NCBI RefSeq assembly: GCF_055900595.2 | Contig: NZ_CM148325.1 | DNA length: 64,000 bases | Direction: 5' to 3' (one strand) | Shown: piece after piece, positions 5,076 through 41,572 of the stretch | Layout of the letters: every line of letters begins with the position of its first letter | Position numbering within the stretch: the stretch's first letter is position 1 | Position numbers and translations under genes: made by a program | The notes under the pieces: generated by a model | The model's input: the letters and a program-made list of their open reading frames with translations, nothing else | Databases searched by the model: none | What the model was told of the DNA's origin: nothing

Positions 5076-6341
5076 TTAACCTCTATGCTTAATTGTGTTT
5101 AACCGGGTGCTAAATTTACGCTCGCCAAACCGCACATCATTCTCAGGAATAATAAAAACGCGGTAATAGCGGATAAAAACAATAATTGCGGTAATCAGGG
5201 CCAGCAGCGCGAAAGTAAAATCGAGAACGATGATATATTGCAGGCCGATGTTCGACAGATAACCGGTAATCAGCGGAATAACAAAATTAGCCAATCCACC
5301 CATCATCATATAAATACTGGTGACTTTGGCTTTGCTTTTGGGGAAAAACTCTGACATGACCGAAACGCCGAGCTGTAAAATGCCGCCAGCTGCTGAGAAA
5401 CCGATAACAAAGGCTCCGGCATTACACACCAGTGGAGAAGGGTACAGGTAGATAATGGCTGATGTTATTGTTGCCAGTGCAGAGTTAAATACATTAGCCC
5501 ATATGGGCCGGACCATTTTTTTCAGTAGTGCGGCAAAAATAAAGACACAGACCAACGAGCCCATACTGTAATAAGAGATGGTTTTTAATGCCTCAGCTTC
5601 TGACATACCAGCAAAAGCCATCGCATATTTGGGCATCCACACCACAATCACATAAAAGGTCGAGAATGCAGCTACACCGAACAGTACCGATGAAACACCT
5701 TCCAGCCAGACTAACGGTTTGCTGTTCATTTGCGGTAATTCATTAGCTACGCTGGCGTCCACCAACTGGTTGGGGAATTTGCTTTTCAATAGCATCAGCG
5801 TGATCAGTACAAACAGAATACCCGGAATAATCAGCCCATAGCCGTACCAGATGTTATTGAGCAACATATAGCTCACCAGCATTGGGTAGAACATTTGTCC
5901 GAATGACACCATCGCTTTAACCAGTATGACCGCCGAACCAGAGGCTTTCGGAAAGCATTCCATGAGCGCAGGGTAGCCACCCGTATCCAGCGCTGAGTTA
6001 GCGATACCTACGCACACTGCCAGACAGTAGGCGAGAGTTAAATTCGGGCAAGCGGGAATACCAAAGAAGAATAGCAGATACATTATTACTGCCATTAATA
6101 TCACCGCCCGACGACCAAACTTATCGGAGATCACACCGAAGAATAAAATACTGATCAATCGCCCCAAACCGATACCGGAAATTAAATAGGCAATGCCCGC
6201 GTTGTCAGTGGAAAACTTTTCTGCCAGAGATGACATATTTTGGGCAAGCGTTATAACACTAATGCCGTGCAGGAAATAGCTAAAGTAAATACAAAGAACA
6301 GCCAGGATAAATGGCGTGCTGAAAGCCTTATTTTGAGACAT
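5076..6341 (-). CDS. ydiN: MFS transporter (421 aa from ATG; ORF track adds a GTG-Lys extension)
   Basis: 12-TM-like hydrophobic ORF; ATG at 6339-6341 gives MSQNKAF...; synteny ydiN-ydiB-aroD. Confidence 0.85.
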
Positions 6342-6567: not shown

Positions 6568-7782
6568 TTACCCACCCGGAGCGACATTTTCCTTTAGCGA
6601 GTGATGCCACGTTTCTTTGCGGCTGCGTAAGCTGATAAACAGTGCCAGTAAAAAGCCGATGGCAGCGATGGCGGTATCGAACCACATAATATCGGCAATA
6701 CTTCTTTGGGATAGATGAGCCGTAATCAACGGAATAGTAAAGGTCGCAATACTGCCCGCACTGTAATAGATCCCTGTAGCTTTACCTTTAGCGTAGGGGA
6801 AACGTTCAGCCATTAATGTCAGGCCAATTTGCACAACACCTCCAGCAGAGGTAAAACCAATGACAAAAGCAAATATTATCACCACATAAAATGTGGGATG
6901 CAGACAGACGGTAAACAGAGCAATAAATGAGATAAAGGTGTACAGCATGAGTAATGTTGTTGGGCGAACGGTATTACGAATGAGTGGAGCGGTAATAAAT
7001 ACACAAAGCAGCGAACCCACGGTGTAGATACTGAGTAGTTTGATCGACATAGTGTATGACATGCCTGCAACAAATTGTCCGTACTGTGCCAGCCACTGGC
7101 TAACCAGATAAAAGGTTGCCATTGAGATATAGCCATATAAGGTATAACTGGCTAAATCGATAATTGAACAGCGATGTTCCGTAGAGTTGGTGGCTTTCTC
7201 TATGACAGGTAAGCGACGACCCGGATGGGGTGGGAACGTACAACGGTATAAAAACAGAGCATTAATAAACATAATGCCTGCGGCAATCATAAAGGACCAG
7301 CCGAACCACAGTTCAGCCCACACTAACAGGCTGATGATTAGCGGTAATAAAAATTGCCCGCTGGAAACAAATGCTTTAATTAAAATATTAGCTGTACCCG
7401 GTGAACGTGGAAAAGCTTCCATCAAACTGGGATAGGTGCCTGCATCGAGAAAACTGTTTGCCATTCCCGCCAGAAAGCCCAAACCATAAGCGATAATGAT
7501 GTTATTGGTGTGCAGGATGCCAAAAAAGAAGGCCATATAGCAGCACATCCCGAGCATGATAAAAGGGCGGCGACCAAAGCGATCGGATAATAATCCTGCA
7601 AAAAGCAAGACACTTAATCGACCAATACCCAGCGATGAGATAACTATTGAGACGCCTGCGGCATTAGTCTGCCAAAGCGTCTCCAGCGAGGCCATATTCA
7701 GGCTCATCAAAATGACGCCCATACCATGCACCAGGTAATTAAAATACAACCCAAGTGCGGTAGGGAAATAGGGATTTTTCAT
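6568..7782 (-). CDS. ydiM: MFS transporter (404 aa), paralogous to ydiN
   Basis: 404-aa hydrophobic ORF with MFS D-R-x-G-R-R motif (SDRFGRRP); synteny. Confidence 0.85.
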   Translation of the reverse strand: MKNPYFPTALGLYFNYLVHGMGVILMSLNMASLETLWQTNAAGVSIVISSLGIGRLSVLLFAGLLSDRFGRRPFIMLGMCCYMAFFFGILHTNNIIIAYGLGFLAGMANSFLDAGTYPSLMEAFPRSPGTANILIKAFVSSGQFLLPLIISLLVWAELWFGWSFMIAAGIMFINALFLYRCTFPPHPGRRLPVIEKATNSTEHRCSIIDLASYTLYGYISMATFYLVSQWLAQYGQFVAGMSYTMSIKLLSIYTVGSLLCVFITAPLIRNTVRPTTLLMLYTFISFIALFTVCLHPTFYVVIIFAFVIGFTSAGGVVQIGLTLMAERFPYAKGKATGIYYSAGSIATFTIPLITAHLSQRSIADIMWFDTAIAAIGFLLALFISLRSRKETWHHSLKENVAPGG

Positions 7783-7880
7783 AGGTTCTACTTAGCAAAG
7801 GTGCTTTAAAAAGTGAAGCGATGTTGTGTCAGCATCCGTTCATTATTGTTATAACAACGACAATTCCTTTCTTTGGAAAA

Positions 7881-8237
7881 TTAACAAAGGCGCTCCAGAT
7901 CGTGTGCATATAATTCAGCGGCTACCGATTGATAGATCTTCCAGTCAATAAAATTGCCATCAGGGTAGACACGTTGAAACGCGGTTAAGTCAGGGAAAAA
8001 ACGCATGGTGTTGTTGCCGATGCGGTTATTTATTTTCTCTATGATGGCATGAAGATGTTTTTTTCGTTGCTGTCGCATAGCCAACAGTTGCTCGACCACA
8101 CGATCAGGAATGGCGCATTTGCCATTTTCCCACTGACGCCAGCTTTCACTGTCACCGGTCTGGGCAATCCAGGTCGCGCATTCATCAATAGTCATGGCAA
8201 AAATATGGCGAAGTGCCTGGAGTTCATAAGCGTTCAT
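7881..8237 (-). CDS. ydiL: small DUF1870-family protein (118 aa from MNAYELQALR)
   Basis: ORF 7881..8264; internal ATG gives the 118-aa form; synteny next to rprA. Confidence 0.75.
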   Translation of the reverse strand: MNAYELQALRHIFAMTIDECATWIAQTGDSESWRQWENGKCAIPDRVVEQLLAMRQQRKKHLHAIIEKINNRIGNNTMRFFPDLTAFQRVYPDGNFIDWKIYQSVAAELYAHDLERLC

Positions 8238-8375
8238 CGTGTAATGGCTGCATGAAATAAACAATAAAATATAAATAACATTATCAGCCTGCCGACGGCT
8301 TGAAGAGAGTCACAGTATCTTGTGCAACATTATTGGAAAGAGTGAGGGGGCGAGGTAGCGAAGCGGAAAAATGTT

Positions 8376-8481
8376 AAAAAAAAGCCCATCGTGGGAGATG
8401 GGCAAAGACTACACACAGCAATTCGTTGTTTCACTCAGGGGATTTCCATGCTTATAAATCAATATGTTGATTTATAACCGT
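8376..8481 (-). ncRNA. rprA: RprA small regulatory RNA (rpoS translational activator)
   Basis: Minus-strand sequence ACGGUUAUAAAUCAACAUAUUGAUUUAUAAGCAUGGAAAUCCCCUGAGUGAAACAACGAAUUGCUGUGUGUAGUCUUUGCCCAUCUCCCACGAUGGGCUUUUUUUU recognised as RprA; ends in a GC hairpin plus U8 terminator; located between ydiK and ydiL. Confidence 0.9.
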
Positions 8482-8666
8482 GAGCTAATAGTAGGCATAC
8501 GGACTTTTTGCGTCGATCAGATTCGTCTCATTAGTTTAAAAACTGTAAAGAATTTGCGACAGGTACTACCAGCTGAATGGCGGTAAGCAGGAAAATATAG
8601 TGAAGAGCAAGCAAATATCAATTAGCGGTGGTTAACAATCAGGCGGCAGAACCGCCTGATGAGAAA

Positions 8667-9779
8667 TTACTTATTCGGTTTCTCGATTTCGCCAAGTTCT
8701 TCGAGAATTTCTTCCGGTTGATCCGTCGGCGGTGGGACCTCTTCCACCCACGCGGCAAACAGACGCCAGGAAACGGCTAACAGAACCGGACCAATAAACA
8801 GACCGATCATCCCGAAAGCAATCAAACCACCAATAACGCCAGAGAGGATCAGGATCAGCGGTAAATCGGCACCCATGCGAATTAACATTGGGCGGATGAC
8901 GTTATCCAGCGTGCCAACCACACCGCTCCACACTAACAATACCGTTCCCCAGGTGGTATCGCCGGTCCAGTAGAGCCAGATAATCGCCGGAATCAGTACC
9001 GGCAATGGGCCAAGCTGGACAAGGCAGGAGAGGATCATTAACACCGTGAGCAACGTTGCATAAGGTACGCCGGATACCGCGAGGCCGATACCACCAAGCA
9101 CTGCCTGTACTAACGCAGTCACCACAACACCCAGCGCCACTGCGCGGATAGCTTGTGCCGCTAGCAGCACGGCGGCATCTCCACGAACGCCTGCCAGACG
9201 GGTAGCAAAATGGCGAATGCCTTGCGCCACTTGTTCACCGCGCCAGTACAGCAGGGCGCTGAAGAGAAGCATCAGCGCACAATGCACCATAAAGCGCCCG
9301 ATATGCGCCGCCTGCCCAACGAACCAGGTGGTGGTGGTGCCAATATAAGGACGGACTTTCGCCATGATCGCCGTACCCCCCATATCCAGCAAGTTGTGCC
9401 AGCCTGCATATAGCTTCGCGCCAATCACCGGAATGGTATTAAGCCACGCCAGATCGGGTAACGTCATGTCACCGCTGGAAATAGCTTTAATAAGCGGGCC
9501 GCTGCCATCGACAATACTGTTAACCAACAAGGCAATAGGGATGATAAACACCATCACTAATAACAGCGTCATCACCAGAACGGCGAGAGAGCGGCGGCCA
9601 AACATTATCTTTTGCAAACGTAACAATACCGGCCAGGTGGCGATAACCACCGTACCGGCCCATGCAAAGCCGAGAATAAAGGGTTGAACAATCCACAGAC
9701 ATGCCACAATCATGATGGCTAAAAACAGCACCGAAAGCAGAATTTGTGCGACATCCCTGGGCTGACGAACATTTACCAT
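8667..9779 (-). CDS. ydiK: AI-2E/UPF0118 family inner-membrane transporter (370 aa)
   Basis: 370-aa multi-TM ORF; synteny. Confidence 0.85.
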   Translation of the reverse strand: MVNVRQPRDVAQILLSVLFLAIMIVACLWIVQPFILGFAWAGTVVIATWPVLLRLQKIMFGRRSLAVLVMTLLLVMVFIIPIALLVNSIVDGSGPLIKAISSGDMTLPDLAWLNTIPVIGAKLYAGWHNLLDMGGTAIMAKVRPYIGTTTTWFVGQAAHIGRFMVHCALMLLFSALLYWRGEQVAQGIRHFATRLAGVRGDAAVLLAAQAIRAVALGVVVTALVQAVLGGIGLAVSGVPYATLLTVLMILSCLVQLGPLPVLIPAIIWLYWTGDTTWGTVLLVWSGVVGTLDNVIRPMLIRMGADLPLILILSGVIGGLIAFGMIGLFIGPVLLAVSWRLFAAWVEEVPPPTDQPEEILEELGEIEKPNK

Positions 9780-9989
9780 AACTACTTTTCACCTTTTTTG
9801 TGCGTCAAATCGTCGACGCGACGTGAACACGCGAAACTCACCTGCATAATGATGAGCAATTTCAGCGGTTTTTAACAGGCCGATTCTGCCCTTAATTCTG
9901 ATGGGCGTGTTAGAAAAAAATGTGGTACAACAACTCAGGCAACACGCAAACGATTTACTCGTCGTATTTCAAATTGCATGTGCTGCGGC

Positions 9990-10075
9990 TACGTTCGTTC
10001 ACCCCAGTCACTTACTTTGTAAGCTCCTGGAGTTCACTCGCTTGCCGCCTTCCTGCAACTCGAAATCCATAGAGT
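9990..10075. repeat. Structured intergenic repeat-like element, possibly a box C-type repeat
   Basis: GC-rich segment cgttcaccccagtcacttactttgtaagctcctggagttcactcgcttgccgccttcctgcaactcgaaatcc with internal inverted repeat (cttac/gtaag); resembles an E. coli intergenic repeat family from memory; not verified. Confidence 0.3.
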
Positions 10076-10164: not shown

Positions 10165-13100
10165 ATGATTCCACAGATTTCCCAGGCACCCGGCGTCGTT
10201 CAATTGGTGCTTAATTTTTTGCAAGAGCTGGAGCAACAGGGTTTTACCGGCGATACGGCGACAAGTTATGCCGATCGTCTGACAATGTCGACCGACAACA
10301 GTATTTACCAACTTCTCCCCGATGCGGTGGTATTTCCGCGTTCAACCGCAGATGTGGCGCTGATCGCCCGTCTTGCCGCGCAGGAACGCTATTCATCGCT
10401 GATCTTTACCCCCCGCGGCGGCGGCACCGGCACTAACGGTCAGGCGCTCAACCAGGGGATTATTGTTGATATGTCCCGCCATATGAACCGCATCATCGAA
10501 ATTAACCCTGAAGAGGGCTGGGTGCGCGTTGAGGCCGGGGTGATAAAAGATCAACTCAATCAGTACCTGAAACCATTCGGCTACTTTTTTGCGCCGGAAC
10601 TTTCGACCAGCAACCGGGCAACGCTCGGTGGGATGATCAATACCGATGCATCCGGTCAGGGATCGCTGGTCTATGGCAAAACGTCAGATCACGTACTTGG
10701 CGTACGCGCGGTGTTGTTGGGGGGCGATATTCTCGATACGCAACCTTTACCCGTCGAACTGGCGGAAACGCTGGGTAAATCCAATACTACAATCGGGCGA
10801 ATTTATAACACGGTTTATCAACGTTGCCGTCAGCAACGCCAGTTAATTATCGACAAATTCCCCAAACTTAACCGTTTTCTGACGGGTTACGATCTGCGTC
10901 ATGTCTTTAACGATGAGATGACTGAGTTCGACCTGACGCGCATTCTGACGGGTTCAGAAGGGACGCTGGCCTTTATTACCGAAGCGCGGCTGGATATTAC
11001 GCCCTTGCCTAAAGTGCGCCGTCTGGTGAACGTCAAATATGACTCTTTTGACTCCGCGCTGCGTAACGCGCCGTTTATGGTTGAGGCGCGGGCGCTTTCG
11101 GTAGAGACGGTAGACTCAAAAGTGCTGAATCTGGCGCGGGAAGATATTGTCTGGCATTCCGTCAGCGAGTTGATTACCGATGTGCCTGACAAAGAAATGC
11201 TCGGGCTGAACATTGTGGAATTTGCTGGTGATGATGAGACGCTGATTGATGAGCGGGTAAATGCACTCTGTGCGCGGTTGGATGAACTGATTGCCAGCCA
11301 ACAGGCAGGTGTGATTGGCTGGCAGGTGTGCCGCGAACTGGCAGGTGTTGAGCGTATTTATGCCATGCGCAAAAAAGCCGTCGGCCTGCTCGGTAATGCC
11401 AAAGGAGCAGCCAAACCGATTCCGTTTGCTGAGGATACCTGCGTACCGCCGGAACATCTGGCGGATTATATTGCTGAATTTCGCGCGCTGCTCGACAGCC
11501 ACGGCTTAAGCTACGGTATGTTCGGTCACGTCGACGCAGGTGTCTTGCACGTCCGTCCGGCACTGGATATGTGCGATCCGCAACAAGAGATTTTGATGAA
11601 GCAAATCTCTGATGATGTAGTGGCGTTGACTGCGAAATACGGTGGTTTGTTGTGGGGCGAACATGGTAAAGGTTTTCGTGCCGAATACAGCCCGGCGTTT
11701 TTCGGTGAGGAACTTTTTGCAGAACTGCGCAAAGTGAAAGCGGCATTTGACCCGCATAACCGACTCAACCCAGGGAAGATTTGCCCGCCAGAAGGTCTCG
11801 ATGCGCCGATGATGAAAGTGGACGCGGTGAAGCGTGGCACATATGATCGACAGATCCCCATCGCGGTACGCCAGCAGTGGCGCGGGGCAATGGAGTGTAA
11901 TGGCAACGGTTTATGCTTCAACTTTGATGCCCGCAGTCCGATGTGCCCGTCGATGAAGATTACTCAGAACCGGATTCATTCACCGAAAGGACGCGCAACG
12001 CTGGTGCGTGAGTGGCTGCGTTTGTTGGCAGATCGCGGCGTTGACCCACTCAAACTGGAACAAGAACTGCCTGAATCCGGAGTCAGTTTGCGGACGTTAA
12101 TTGCCCGCACGCGCAATAGCTGGCATGCGAATAAAGGCGAATATGACTTCTCACACGAAGTCAAAGAGGCGATGTCGGGTTGCCTGGCCTGTAAAGCGTG
12201 TTCGACTCAGTGCCCCATCAAAATTGACGTGCCTGAGTTTCGTTCTCGCTTTCTGCAACTCTATCACACCCGTTATTTGCGCCCCCTGCGCGACCACCTC
12301 GTCGCCACGGTCGAGAGCTACGCACCGCTGATGGCTCGTGCACCGAAGACTTTTAACTTCTTCATTAACCAGCCGCTGGTGCGCAAACTCTCCGAAAAAC
12401 ATATCGGCATGGTTGATTTGCCGCTGCTGTCGGTTCCCTCGCTGCAACAACAAATGGTGGGGCATCGCTCGGCAAACATGACGCTGGAACAGCTTGAAGT
12501 TCTCAATGCAGAGCAGAAAGCGCGCACGGTGTTGGTGGTGCAGGACCCCTTTACCAGCTATTACGATGCGCAAGTGGTGGCGGATTTTGTCCGTCTGGTC
12601 GAAAAATTAGGTTTCCAGCCCGTGTTACTGCCATTTTCGCCGAATGGCAAAGCCCAGCATATCAAAGGCTTTCTTAATCGTTTTGCGAAGACGGCGAAAA
12701 AGACGGCGGATTTCCTCAACCGTGTGGCGAAGCTGGGGATGCCAATGGTGGGCGTCGATCCGGCGCTGGTACTTTGTTATCGCGATGAATATAAACTGGC
12801 GCTGGGCGAGGAACGTGGCGAGTTTAACGTCTTACTGGCGAATGAATGGCTGGCAAGCGCACTTGACTCACAGCCAGTGGCTACAGTCAGCGGTGAATCA
12901 TGGTATTTCTTTGGTCACTGTACCGAGGTTACCGCTTTGCCGGGCGCGCCAGCACAATGGGCTGCGATATTTGCCCGTTTTGGCGCGAAACTGGAAAATG
13001 TCAGCGTGGGTTGCTGCGGCATGGCAGGGACTTACGGACATGAAGCGAAAAATCATAAAAACTCGCTCGGGATCTATGAGTTATCCTGGCATCAGGCGAT

Positions 13101-13221
13101 GCAGCGACTGCCGCGTAACCGCTGTCTGGCGACCGGATATTCCTGTCGCGGCCAGGTAAAACGGGTTGAAGGCACGGGGGTACGCCATCCTGTGCAGGCT
13201 TTACTGGAGATTATTAAATGA
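10165..13221 (+). CDS. ydiJ: large FAD-linked oxidase fused to Fe-S/CCG domains (1018 aa)
   Basis: 1018-aa ORF; N-terminal FAD-binding oxidase region, C-terminal ferredoxin-like CLACKACSTQCP and GCCGMAG motifs; ATGA overlap with menI. Confidence 0.9.
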   Translation: MIPQISQAPGVVQLVLNFLQELEQQGFTGDTATSYADRLTMSTDNSIYQLLPDAVVFPRSTADVALIARLAAQERYSSLIFTPRGGGTGTNGQALNQGIIVDMSRHMNRIIEINPEEGWVRVEAGVIKDQLNQYLKPFGYFFAPELSTSNRATLGGMINTDASGQGSLVYGKTSDHVLGVRAVLLGGDILDTQPLPVELAETLGKSNTTIGRIYNTVYQRCRQQRQLIIDKFPKLNRFLTGYDLRHVFNDEMTEFDLTRILTGSEGTLAFITEARLDITPLPKVRRLVNVKYDSFDSALRNAPFMVEARALSVETVDSKVLNLAREDIVWHSVSELITDVPDKEMLGLNIVEFAGDDETLIDERVNALCARLDELIASQQAGVIGWQVCRELAGVERIYAMRKKAVGLLGNAKGAAKPIPFAEDTCVPPEHLADYIAEFRALLDSHGLSYGMFGHVDAGVLHVRPALDMCDPQQEILMKQISDDVVALTAKYGGLLWGEHGKGFRAEYSPAFFGEELFAELRKVKAAFDPHNRLNPGKICPPEGLDAPMMKVDAVKRGTYDRQIPIAVRQQWRGAMECNGNGLCFNFDARSPMCPSMKITQNRIHSPKGRATLVREWLRLLADRGVDPLKLEQELPESGVSLRTLIARTRNSWHANKGEYDFSHEVKEAMSGCLACKACSTQCPIKIDVPEFRSRFLQLYHTRYLRPLRDHLVATVESYAPLMARAPKTFNFFINQPLVRKLSEKHIGMVDLPLLSVPSLQQQMVGHRSANMTLEQLEVLNAEQKARTVLVVQDPFTSYYDAQVVADFVRLVEKLGFQPVLLPFSPNGKAQHIKGFLNRFAKTAKKTADFLNRVAKLGMPMVGVDPALVLCYRDEYKLALGEERGEFNVLLANEWLASALDSQPVATVSGESWYFFGHCTEVTALPGAPAQWAAIFARFGAKLENVSVGCCGMAGTYGHEAKNHKNSLGIYELSWHQAMQRLPRNRCLATGYSCRGQVKRVEGTGVRHPVQALLEIIK

Positions 13222-14054: not shown

Positions 14055-14177
14055 GGCTTAGCTTTATGAGACTATTCTTATCGCCCCTTCGAGCTAAGCC
14101 ACTGTGAGTGCCGGAGATAAGCGCCGGATGGGGTAGAAACCCTTAAGCCTGTGATGCACAGACTTAAGGGTTTTCTT
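14055..14177 (+). ncRNA. Candidate small RNA locus ending in a strong intrinsic terminator (position matches rydB; sequence not verified)
   Basis: Nested inverted repeats (gcttagc/gctaagc, cttatc/gataag) followed by an 11-bp perfect stem aaacccttaag/cttaagggttt and a T-tract; about 220 nt downstream of ydiH and 290 nt upstream of sufA. Confidence 0.35.
14137..14177 (+). terminator. Rho-independent terminator (11-bp perfect stem plus T-tract)
   Basis: aaacccttaag-N15-cttaagggtttt followed by cttatttc; U-tract only on the + strand. Confidence 0.7.
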
Positions 14178-41019: not shown

Positions 41020-41063
41020 TCCATTTCACTCCAGACCCTAACTTCAGCTCCTGCAAAATCGCA

Positions 41064-41079
41064 AGGTAAACGTTTGCCT
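41064..41079. promoter_or_regulatory. PurR operator-like site (aGGTAAACGTTTGCCt) in the purR leader
   Basis: Matches the pur-box core GCAAACGTTTGC at 11/12 positions; about 45 bp upstream of the purR start; purR is autoregulated. Confidence 0.55.
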
Positions 41080-41317
41080 TTACACACCTTACGCACAACA
41101 AAAGTGTTGCGGTACGCCGGAAAAACGACACGGAGCGTCAGGAAGGGGTCAATGGCCAGTACGCAAATAGTGTAAGCGTGGAATTTTGGCCGATCTTGAC
41201 GAAAAGGGGAAGTGGTAAAAACACTTATCATTATAAATGACGGGAGATTTTTTCATCACAGTGTGTAAAAATGCGTAATATCACTTTTTGTGTGGTAATA
41301 AAAAAGGAGAAAACTTG

Positions 41318-41407
41318 ATGAGCACCGACCTTAAATTTTCACTGGTAACAACGATTATCGTCCTCGGTTTGATCGTAGCCGTGGGTTTGACTGCCGCGCT
41401 GCACTGA
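41318..41407 (+). CDS. ynhF: 29-aa hydrophobic small membrane protein (MSTDLKFSLVTTIIVLGLIVAVGLTAALH)
   Basis: ATG at 41318 preceded by AAAAAGGAGAAAA RBS; single TM helix; followed by hairpin cgagggag/ctccctcg; absent from the ORF track because it is under 60 aa. Confidence 0.75.
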   Translation: MSTDLKFSLVTTIIVLGLIVAVGLTAALH

Positions 41408-41572
41408 TTTCCTCTCGAGGGAGCGCGTTCTCCCTCGCATCTCCTTCCTGTTTGTTAGCAAAATGGCAAAAGTGTTTTCTCTTTTTGTTATTTTCATTTT
41501 TTTGTGATTGCTGTCATGCTTTCGCCACTTTAATGAATATCGCGTAATGACGCGAAGAGGTGGAGATAAGGC

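Follow-up and report, generated by a model that had tools for sequence, protein, structure and literature searches.

Identity and Extent of the rprA Gene

The window, by which we mean the whole 64,000-nt stretch of DNA that was analyzed, carries on its minus strand, between ydiK and ydiL, a gene for the small RNA RprA (table 1). A scan with cmscan against Rfam 15 places the RprA family (RF00034) at 8481..8374 with 118.5 bits, well above the gathering score of 70 (E 1.6e-16). The match covers model positions 1-108 of 108, with no truncation and zero non-canonical pairs flagged, and Rfam assigns the locus to RprA only; a chance match is excluded by these scores. The reverse complement of window 8374-8481 (108 nt) is ACGGUUAUAAAUCAACAUAUUGAUUUAUAAGCAUGGAAAUCCCCUGAGUGAAACAACGAAUUGCUGUGUGUAGUCUUUGCCCAUCUCCCACGAUGGGCUUUUUUUUAA. 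Over 8481..8376 it aligns with the b4431 gene of K-12 MG1655 (1770372..1770477, 106 nt), to which it is identical at 106/106 nucleotides, and the 100% identity spans the interval from -117 to about +131, that is, the gene itself, 117 nt upstream and ~25 nt downstream of it.

A previous sequence-only reading of this DNA had put RprA at 8376-8481 of the minus strand, between ydiK and ydiL, and these ends are exactly those of K-12 rprA, with both neighbors lying where that reading had set them. As a check it had suggested running Infernal with the RprA model, and that scan yielded the full-length match above the gathering score. The sequence had also been described as complete through its terminator hairpin and U8 tail, which proves to be literally so, the stem being followed by eight T. 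Finally, the locus had been treated as a well-described anchor of low interest; its identity to the characterized K-12 gene, promoter included, bears this out. The presence of rprA here is already known and there is nothing new in the gene itself.

We conclude that the feature is almost certainly the intact and functional rprA of an E. coli chromosome, the regulator through which the Rcs system would act on RpoS and CsgD. In comparison with the K-12 version (b4431; RF00034), the sequences of the gene, promoter, and terminator are the same, as is the neighborhood (ydiJ / ydiK-rprA-ydiL-ydiM). No difference falls inside the gene, whereas five substitutions or indels are found elsewhere in the 429-nt ydiK-ydiL intergenic region; in the 429-nt alignment all five lie beyond the 117 nt that precede the gene and the 25 nt that follow it. 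The functional steps that we ascribe to the locus below are drawn from this identity with the K-12 gene and from the literature.

Table 1. Coordinates of the rprA locus, its functional parts, its neighbors, and the mobile copies of its 3' domain (window positions, except for the mobile-copy loci, which are numbered within their own sequences)
Feature	Position	Strand	Basis
rprA gene, primary transcript of 105-106 nt	8376..8481	-	RF00034 full-length match; identity with K-12 b4431
rprA transcription start	8481	-	K-12 b4431 has the same ends
rprA 3' end	within T-run 8376-8383	-	K-12 b4431 has the same ends
RcsB box TGAGACGAATCTGA, -49..-36 from start	8517..8530	-	read from sequence; consensus fit
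-10 hexamer TACTAT, -12..-7	8488..8493	-	read from sequence; identical to K-12
5' stem-loop of RprA, nt 3-32	8450..8479	-	minimum-free-energy and centroid folds
Linker region, rpoS-leader pairing, nt 33-62	8420..8449	-	exact complements at nt 40-45 and nt 55-62
Conserved 3' domain, nt 60-105 (RprA60-105 / RprAproc)	8377..8422	-	csgD complement; literature
csgD-pairing seed, nt 62-74	8408-8420	-	13-nt perfect complement
Intrinsic terminator, stem GCCCAUC/GAUGGGC, loop UCCCAC (6 nt) at 8384-8403, U8 at 8376-8383	8376..8403	-	terminator scan, fold, Rfam structure line
ydiK (AI-2E family transporter), upstream of rprA	8667..9779	-	370-aa ORF; RefSeq annotation of 99.5% identical DNA
9-bp hairpin just past the ydiK stop codon	~8637-8662		read from sequence
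ydiL, downstream of rprA	7881..8237	-	ORF; RefSeq annotation transferred from RMDEC465 and K-12
ydiM	7782..6568	-	annotation transferred from RMDEC465 and K-12
ydiJ, on the other side of ydiK	10165..13221	+	
Mobile-copy locus L003	4001-4048		
Mobile-copy locus L005	1501-1546		
Mobile-copy locus L006	1501-1544		
Mobile-copy locus L007	1501-1526		
Mobile-copy locus L008	1501-1541		
Mobile-copy locus L009	1501-1556		
Mobile-copy loci L011-L130			

Promoter and Predicted Control by RcsB

The box upstream of rprA fits the RcsB consensus TN(G/A)GAN4TC(T/C)NA in a pattern search, and it is the 14-bp box of the Salmonella PrprA 23-mer that was co-crystallized with RcsB (PMC7913699). The consensus is a loose one, occurring 3 times in the window where 2.1 occurrences are expected and so not enriched, and it is the position of the box and its identity with the crystallized one that carry weight. 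A weak TCGACG occupies the -35 position and abuts the box. Judged by its sequence, the region therefore has the makeup expected of an RcsB-dependent promoter: a box abutting a weak -35, plus a -10. Transcription of rprA has been reported to be strictly RcsB-dependent, the RNA being undetectable without RcsB, and a PrprA-lacZ fusion has been used as an RcsB-dependent promoter (PMC6298664). The combination of a weak -35 and a good -10 suits a promoter with such a reputation. A simple, generic sigma-70 scan made no call at the rprA promoter and called an unrelated site ~110 nt upstream instead; the missed call fits the poor -35 and the dependence on an activator, and we do not count it against the gene. 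On this model, envelope stress would be relayed by the Rcs phosphorelay to RcsB, whose phosphorylated form would bind the -49..-36 box and so switch on a promoter having a good -10 but a poor -35.

Two further observations concern promoter-like sequences. At ~110 nt upstream of the rprA start, window 8594-8621 (-) reads TTGATA-16 nt-TATATT (10/12 matches), and two of the five differences from K-12 lie in or next to its -10, where K-12 has CCCCATATT and the window CACTATATT, with the hexamer improved; this promoter-like site could be there by chance. Elsewhere, the RcsB-consensus match TGAGACTATTCTTA at 14067-14080 (+) ends 3 nt before the 5' end of the rydB small RNA, which is itself located at 14083-14141 (+) (RF00118, 71.7 bits vs. 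a threshold of 50). As chance alone would give ~2 such matches in the window, this one may be meaningless.

Fold and Terminator

The minimum-free-energy fold of RprA consists of a long 5' stem-loop, a mostly open linker, and the terminator; in the Rfam consensus the 5' helix is shorter. For the whole molecule the z score of the fold is only -2.0, which is unsurprising given how much of RprA stays unpaired. In the terminator scan the stem (8403..8384) has 7 bp, five of them G-C pairs, and is followed by TTTTTTTT (8383..8376). This rho-independent terminator with its poly-U tail is the Hfq-binding 3' end expected of RprA. The product would thus be an RNA of 105-106 nt, bound by Hfq and terminated at its own hairpin.

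Conservation and Neighborhood of the Locus

A 3-kb query around rprA matches 5424 of the 5426 complete E. coli genomes, and every E. coli record among the matches listed bears the annotation "rprA: antisense sRNA RprA" together with ydiK, ydiL, and ydiM. Annotation carried over from the best match (RMDEC465) and from K-12 puts rprA at 8481..8374/8376. The 162-nt segment comprising promoter and gene is present in 5423/5426 genomes and is at least 99% identical in 5270 of the 5424 matching E. coli records. Such near-invariance across ~5400 genomes indicates purifying selection. In Klebsiella the order ydiK-rprA is kept, but rprA is followed by ppsA instead of ydiL.

These data bear on two other ways of reading the locus. 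The first, that rprA is a silent relic, present in this strain but unexpressed or non-functional, could call on the five positions at which the intergenic region departs from K-12. All five, however, are outside the gene and the core promoter; at the RcsB box, -10, seed regions, and terminator the sequence does not differ from that of the characterized gene; and the 162-nt promoter and gene segment is nearly invariant across the ~5400 E. coli genomes. We consider a silent relic highly improbable. The second, in which the RNA would be no independent gene and simply the last part of the ydiK message (its 3'UTR, or a product of read-through), has a practically negligible probability: rprA does follow ydiK in the same orientation at a distance of 185 nt, and the hairpin past the ydiK stop has no clear T-run, which makes some read-through conceivable, but the RcsB box and the -10 are correctly spaced from the annotated 5' end, the PrprA-lacZ fusion is RcsB-dependent with rprA RNA undetectable without RcsB (PMC6298664), and the Klebsiella rprA, which follows ydiK but precedes ppsA, travels as a unit with its own terminator. 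An intact rprA, expressed from its own promoter, remains our reading of the locus.

Several side observations were made on the relatives of this region. Over window 7000-10000 identity reaches 99% or more in just 3 of 5425 E. coli records, the best of them at 99.5% (RMDEC465, from human stool, Thailand); with so few close relatives, the window seems to represent an E. coli lineage that has been little sampled. Over the 402 nt queried of the ydiK-ydiL intergenic segment (window 8265-8666), strain 2020CK-00188 is 100% identical. Klebsiella is without the ydiL..fadK block that E. coli has after rprA. Several Klebsiella records labeled as plasmids carry a chromosomal ydiJ-ydiK-rprA-ppsA segment, for example, K. 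pneumoniae pCMC432M_P3 (NZ_CP079158.1), and the RprA of these records is 98% identical to that of E. coli. A plasmid-borne rprA was considered and rejected: the ~10 full-length "plasmid" matches appear to be chromosome-sized or chromosome-derived, and the Klebsiella record inspected carries ydiJ-ydiK-rprA-ppsA.

Other RNA Features in the Window

The strongest Rfam match in the window is to STnc550 (396.5 bits, 41020-41410, +). The 3' part of this match holds a 29-codon ORF (41318-41407, MSTDLKFSLVTTIIVLGLIVAVGLTAALH), which we take to be the small membrane protein YnhF. Were this so, most of the STnc550 "sRNA" family would amount to an mRNA leader with a short coding sequence attached. On the minus strand, two tRNA-Val(GAC) genes stand in tandem at 32270-32346 and 32351-32427, and one of them is overlapped in antisense by an Rfam match to HPnc0260 (32146-32308, +, 110 bits). 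The best-aligned 3' part of that match is the complement of the tRNA, and it therefore probably reflects tRNA sequence rather than a separate antisense RNA gene.

Predicted Pairing with the rpoS Leader

Because rpoS and csgD are situated outside the window, their K-12 sequences were used as stand-ins. Within the linker, the 8-mer AACGAAUU (RprA nt 55-62, window 8420-8427) is complementary to K-12 rpoS leader positions -117..-110, and the 6-mer UCCCCU (nt 40-45, 8437-8442) is complementary to positions -106..-101. When the K-12 rpoS leader is folded alone, -114..-94 pairs with -18..+4, a segment that covers the Shine-Dalgarno sequence and the AUG. The RprA complements thus overlap the strand that sequesters the Shine-Dalgarno sequence and AUG, so that the published anti-antisense mechanism for the activation of rpoS by RprA (PMC3465796) is readable from the sequences. 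The energy of the linker-rpoS duplex is statistically weak (z = -1.8, with 90 of 2000 shuffles equally good). The duplex restricted to the linker, combined with a search for exact complements, had replaced an unrestricted RNAduplex run between the entire RprA and 200 nt of rpoS leader, whose result, an end-to-end duplex (-53.5 kcal/mol, z = -1.1, equaled by 149 of 1000 shuffles), was meaningless.

According to this mechanism, the single-stranded nt 33-62 would pair with the rpoS leader on the upstream strand of its inhibitory hairpin; this would free the ribosome-binding site and lead to more sigma-S synthesis. The same anti-antisense logic, applied to the same stretch of the rpoS leader, is established for DsrA and ArcZ, Hfq-dependent activators of rpoS translation (restated in PMC7547250). 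These two differ from RprA in having unrelated sequences, loci, and regulators.

The 3' Domain and Its Targets

RprA nt 62-74 form a 13-nt perfect complement to positions -98..-86 of the K-12 csgD 5'UTR, which none of 5000 shuffles reaches, and this agrees with the published pairing of RprA nt 60-97 at csgD site I (PMC3465796). RprA60-105 was described as a highly conserved region sufficient to repress csgD, and mutational analysis established the direct repression of both csgD and ydaM by RprA (PMC3465796). The last 47 nt also constitute a processed RprA, which coexists with the full-length RNA, is active, and represses narP (PMC9262595), and hdeD is a further target (PMC5861431). For K-12 and Salmonella the literature describes an RprA transcript that Rcs induces, that Hfq binds, and that is processed to a form of ~47 nt. 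In the present strain, nt 60-105 would likewise exist on their own as the processed 47-nt species, and this 3' domain would repress csgD by pairing with its leader, and would pair with and repress other mRNAs as well (ydaM/dgcM; the narP effect being indirect). Repression of csgD would link envelope stress to a reduced production of curli and biofilm matrix.

Copies of the 3' Domain on Phages and Plasmids

Short matches to the 3' half of RprA turn up in E. coli CH468, on its P1-like phage-plasmid, as well as in 22 GenBank phage records and ~100 plasmids. What these mobile elements have is a module, made up of the invariant UGCUGUGUGUAGUCUUUGCCC (matching window sequence 8400-8420, -) and then a covarying terminator and U-run, without the 5' half of RprA. 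Its carriers include temperate E. coli phages, lytic N4-like Erwinia phages, P1-like phage-plasmids, and conjugative Klebsiella and Raoultella plasmids.

Six unrelated elements were aligned: the CH468 phage-plasmid, the Enterobacter plasmid pJBIWA008_2 (module and flank identical to the CH468 copy), the temperate E. coli phages vB_EcoM-606R2 and LLS, the lytic N4-like Erwinia phage Ea9-2, and a conjugative Klebsiella plasmid in which the module adjoins hok. The 21-mer TGCTGTGTGTAGTCTTTGCCC (RprA nt 62-82) is unchanged in five of the six and the 20-nt GCTGTGTGTAGTCTTTGCCC in all of them, since the Klebsiella plasmid has A for T at the first base of the 21-mer; the upstream sequence and the terminator loop vary. 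With the Rfam RprA model five of the six copies score 43-63 bits, below the threshold, and the copy of phage LLS gives no match to that model at E up to 0.1; no other Rfam family matches the mobile site.

The exact 21-mer occurs in at least 120 IMG/VR viral contigs, a set in which its invariance is imposed by the exact search, so that only the BLAST-derived set shows the invariance independently. The RprA 5' half is absent from all of the IMG/VR contigs listed (at least 120). Among the matches listed there are 82 distinct flank variants and 41 distinct terminator hairpins, and a U-run follows the hairpin in 119/120 copies; at the fifth stem pair of the mobile terminators A-U, G-C, C-G, and U-A all occur. 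The mobile modules look like real terminators on real, working transcription units. In six of the representative contigs examined, a CI/LexA-type or HTH repressor gene precedes the module on its own strand, at a distance of a few tens to ~580 nt, and early genes come after it.

Copies are also present in E. coli genomes. The 51-nt module was found at 6093 places in 5423 genomes, which leaves up to ~670 copies beyond rprA, 27 of them on plasmids; the search accepted E up to 10, and this count is thus an upper bound. The 606R2-type copy is present in 156 of 5426 E. coli genomes, and no annotated feature overlaps it among the E. coli matches listed.

One explanation that we tried and rejected was that the shared sequence is an attachment-site core, left by phages that integrate into rprA. 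No viral contig listed has the RprA 5' half, the 21-mer matches are internal to the contigs, and the downstream flanks are unlike the chromosomal flank. In the representatives examined, the modules lie beside repressor genes, and there was no integrase-like gene among the neighboring proteins scanned. Furthermore, the module is also carried by lytic N4-like phages, P1-like phage-plasmids, and conjugative plasmids.

A different view, to which we give somewhat less than an even chance, is that the RprA 3' domain (nt 60-105, the seed UGCUGUGUGUAGUCUUU plus terminator) is a module that Enterobacterales phages and plasmids carry as small RNAs of their own, mimicking processed RprA. Temperate phages would express the module from their immunity region, beside the gene for the repressor. 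By mimicking processed RprA it could tap into the regulon of that RNA (csgD and curli, dgcM, narP, and others) without an Rcs signal. The nearest precedent for a phage RNA doing part of the job of RprA is StxS, an sRNA of Shiga-toxin phages, which is described as arising when the late PR' transcript terminates early and which pairs with the site in the rpoS leader that RprA, DsrA, and ArcZ use (PMC7547250). The StxS paper is silent on any likeness to the RprA sequence (PMC7547250). Unlike StxS, the mobile modules copy the csgD-pairing 3' domain of RprA nearly verbatim, and the temperate-phage ones examined adjoin a repressor gene. We found no description of mobile RprA-like copies in the searchable literature, and RprA goes unmentioned in the Pas sRNA preprint. 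The mobile copies may act as RprA mimics, and they may also be undescribed.

Biological Implications

As a landmark, rprA places the window in the ydiN-ydiJ / suf region of an E. coli chromosome, and the strain appears, from the conservation of the gene and its promoter, to keep an intact Rcs-to-RprA-to-RpoS/CsgD branch of the envelope-stress response. If it is true that phages and plasmids spread the target-recognition domain of RprA, then a central circuit for stress and biofilm would be undergoing post-transcriptional rewiring by mobile elements.
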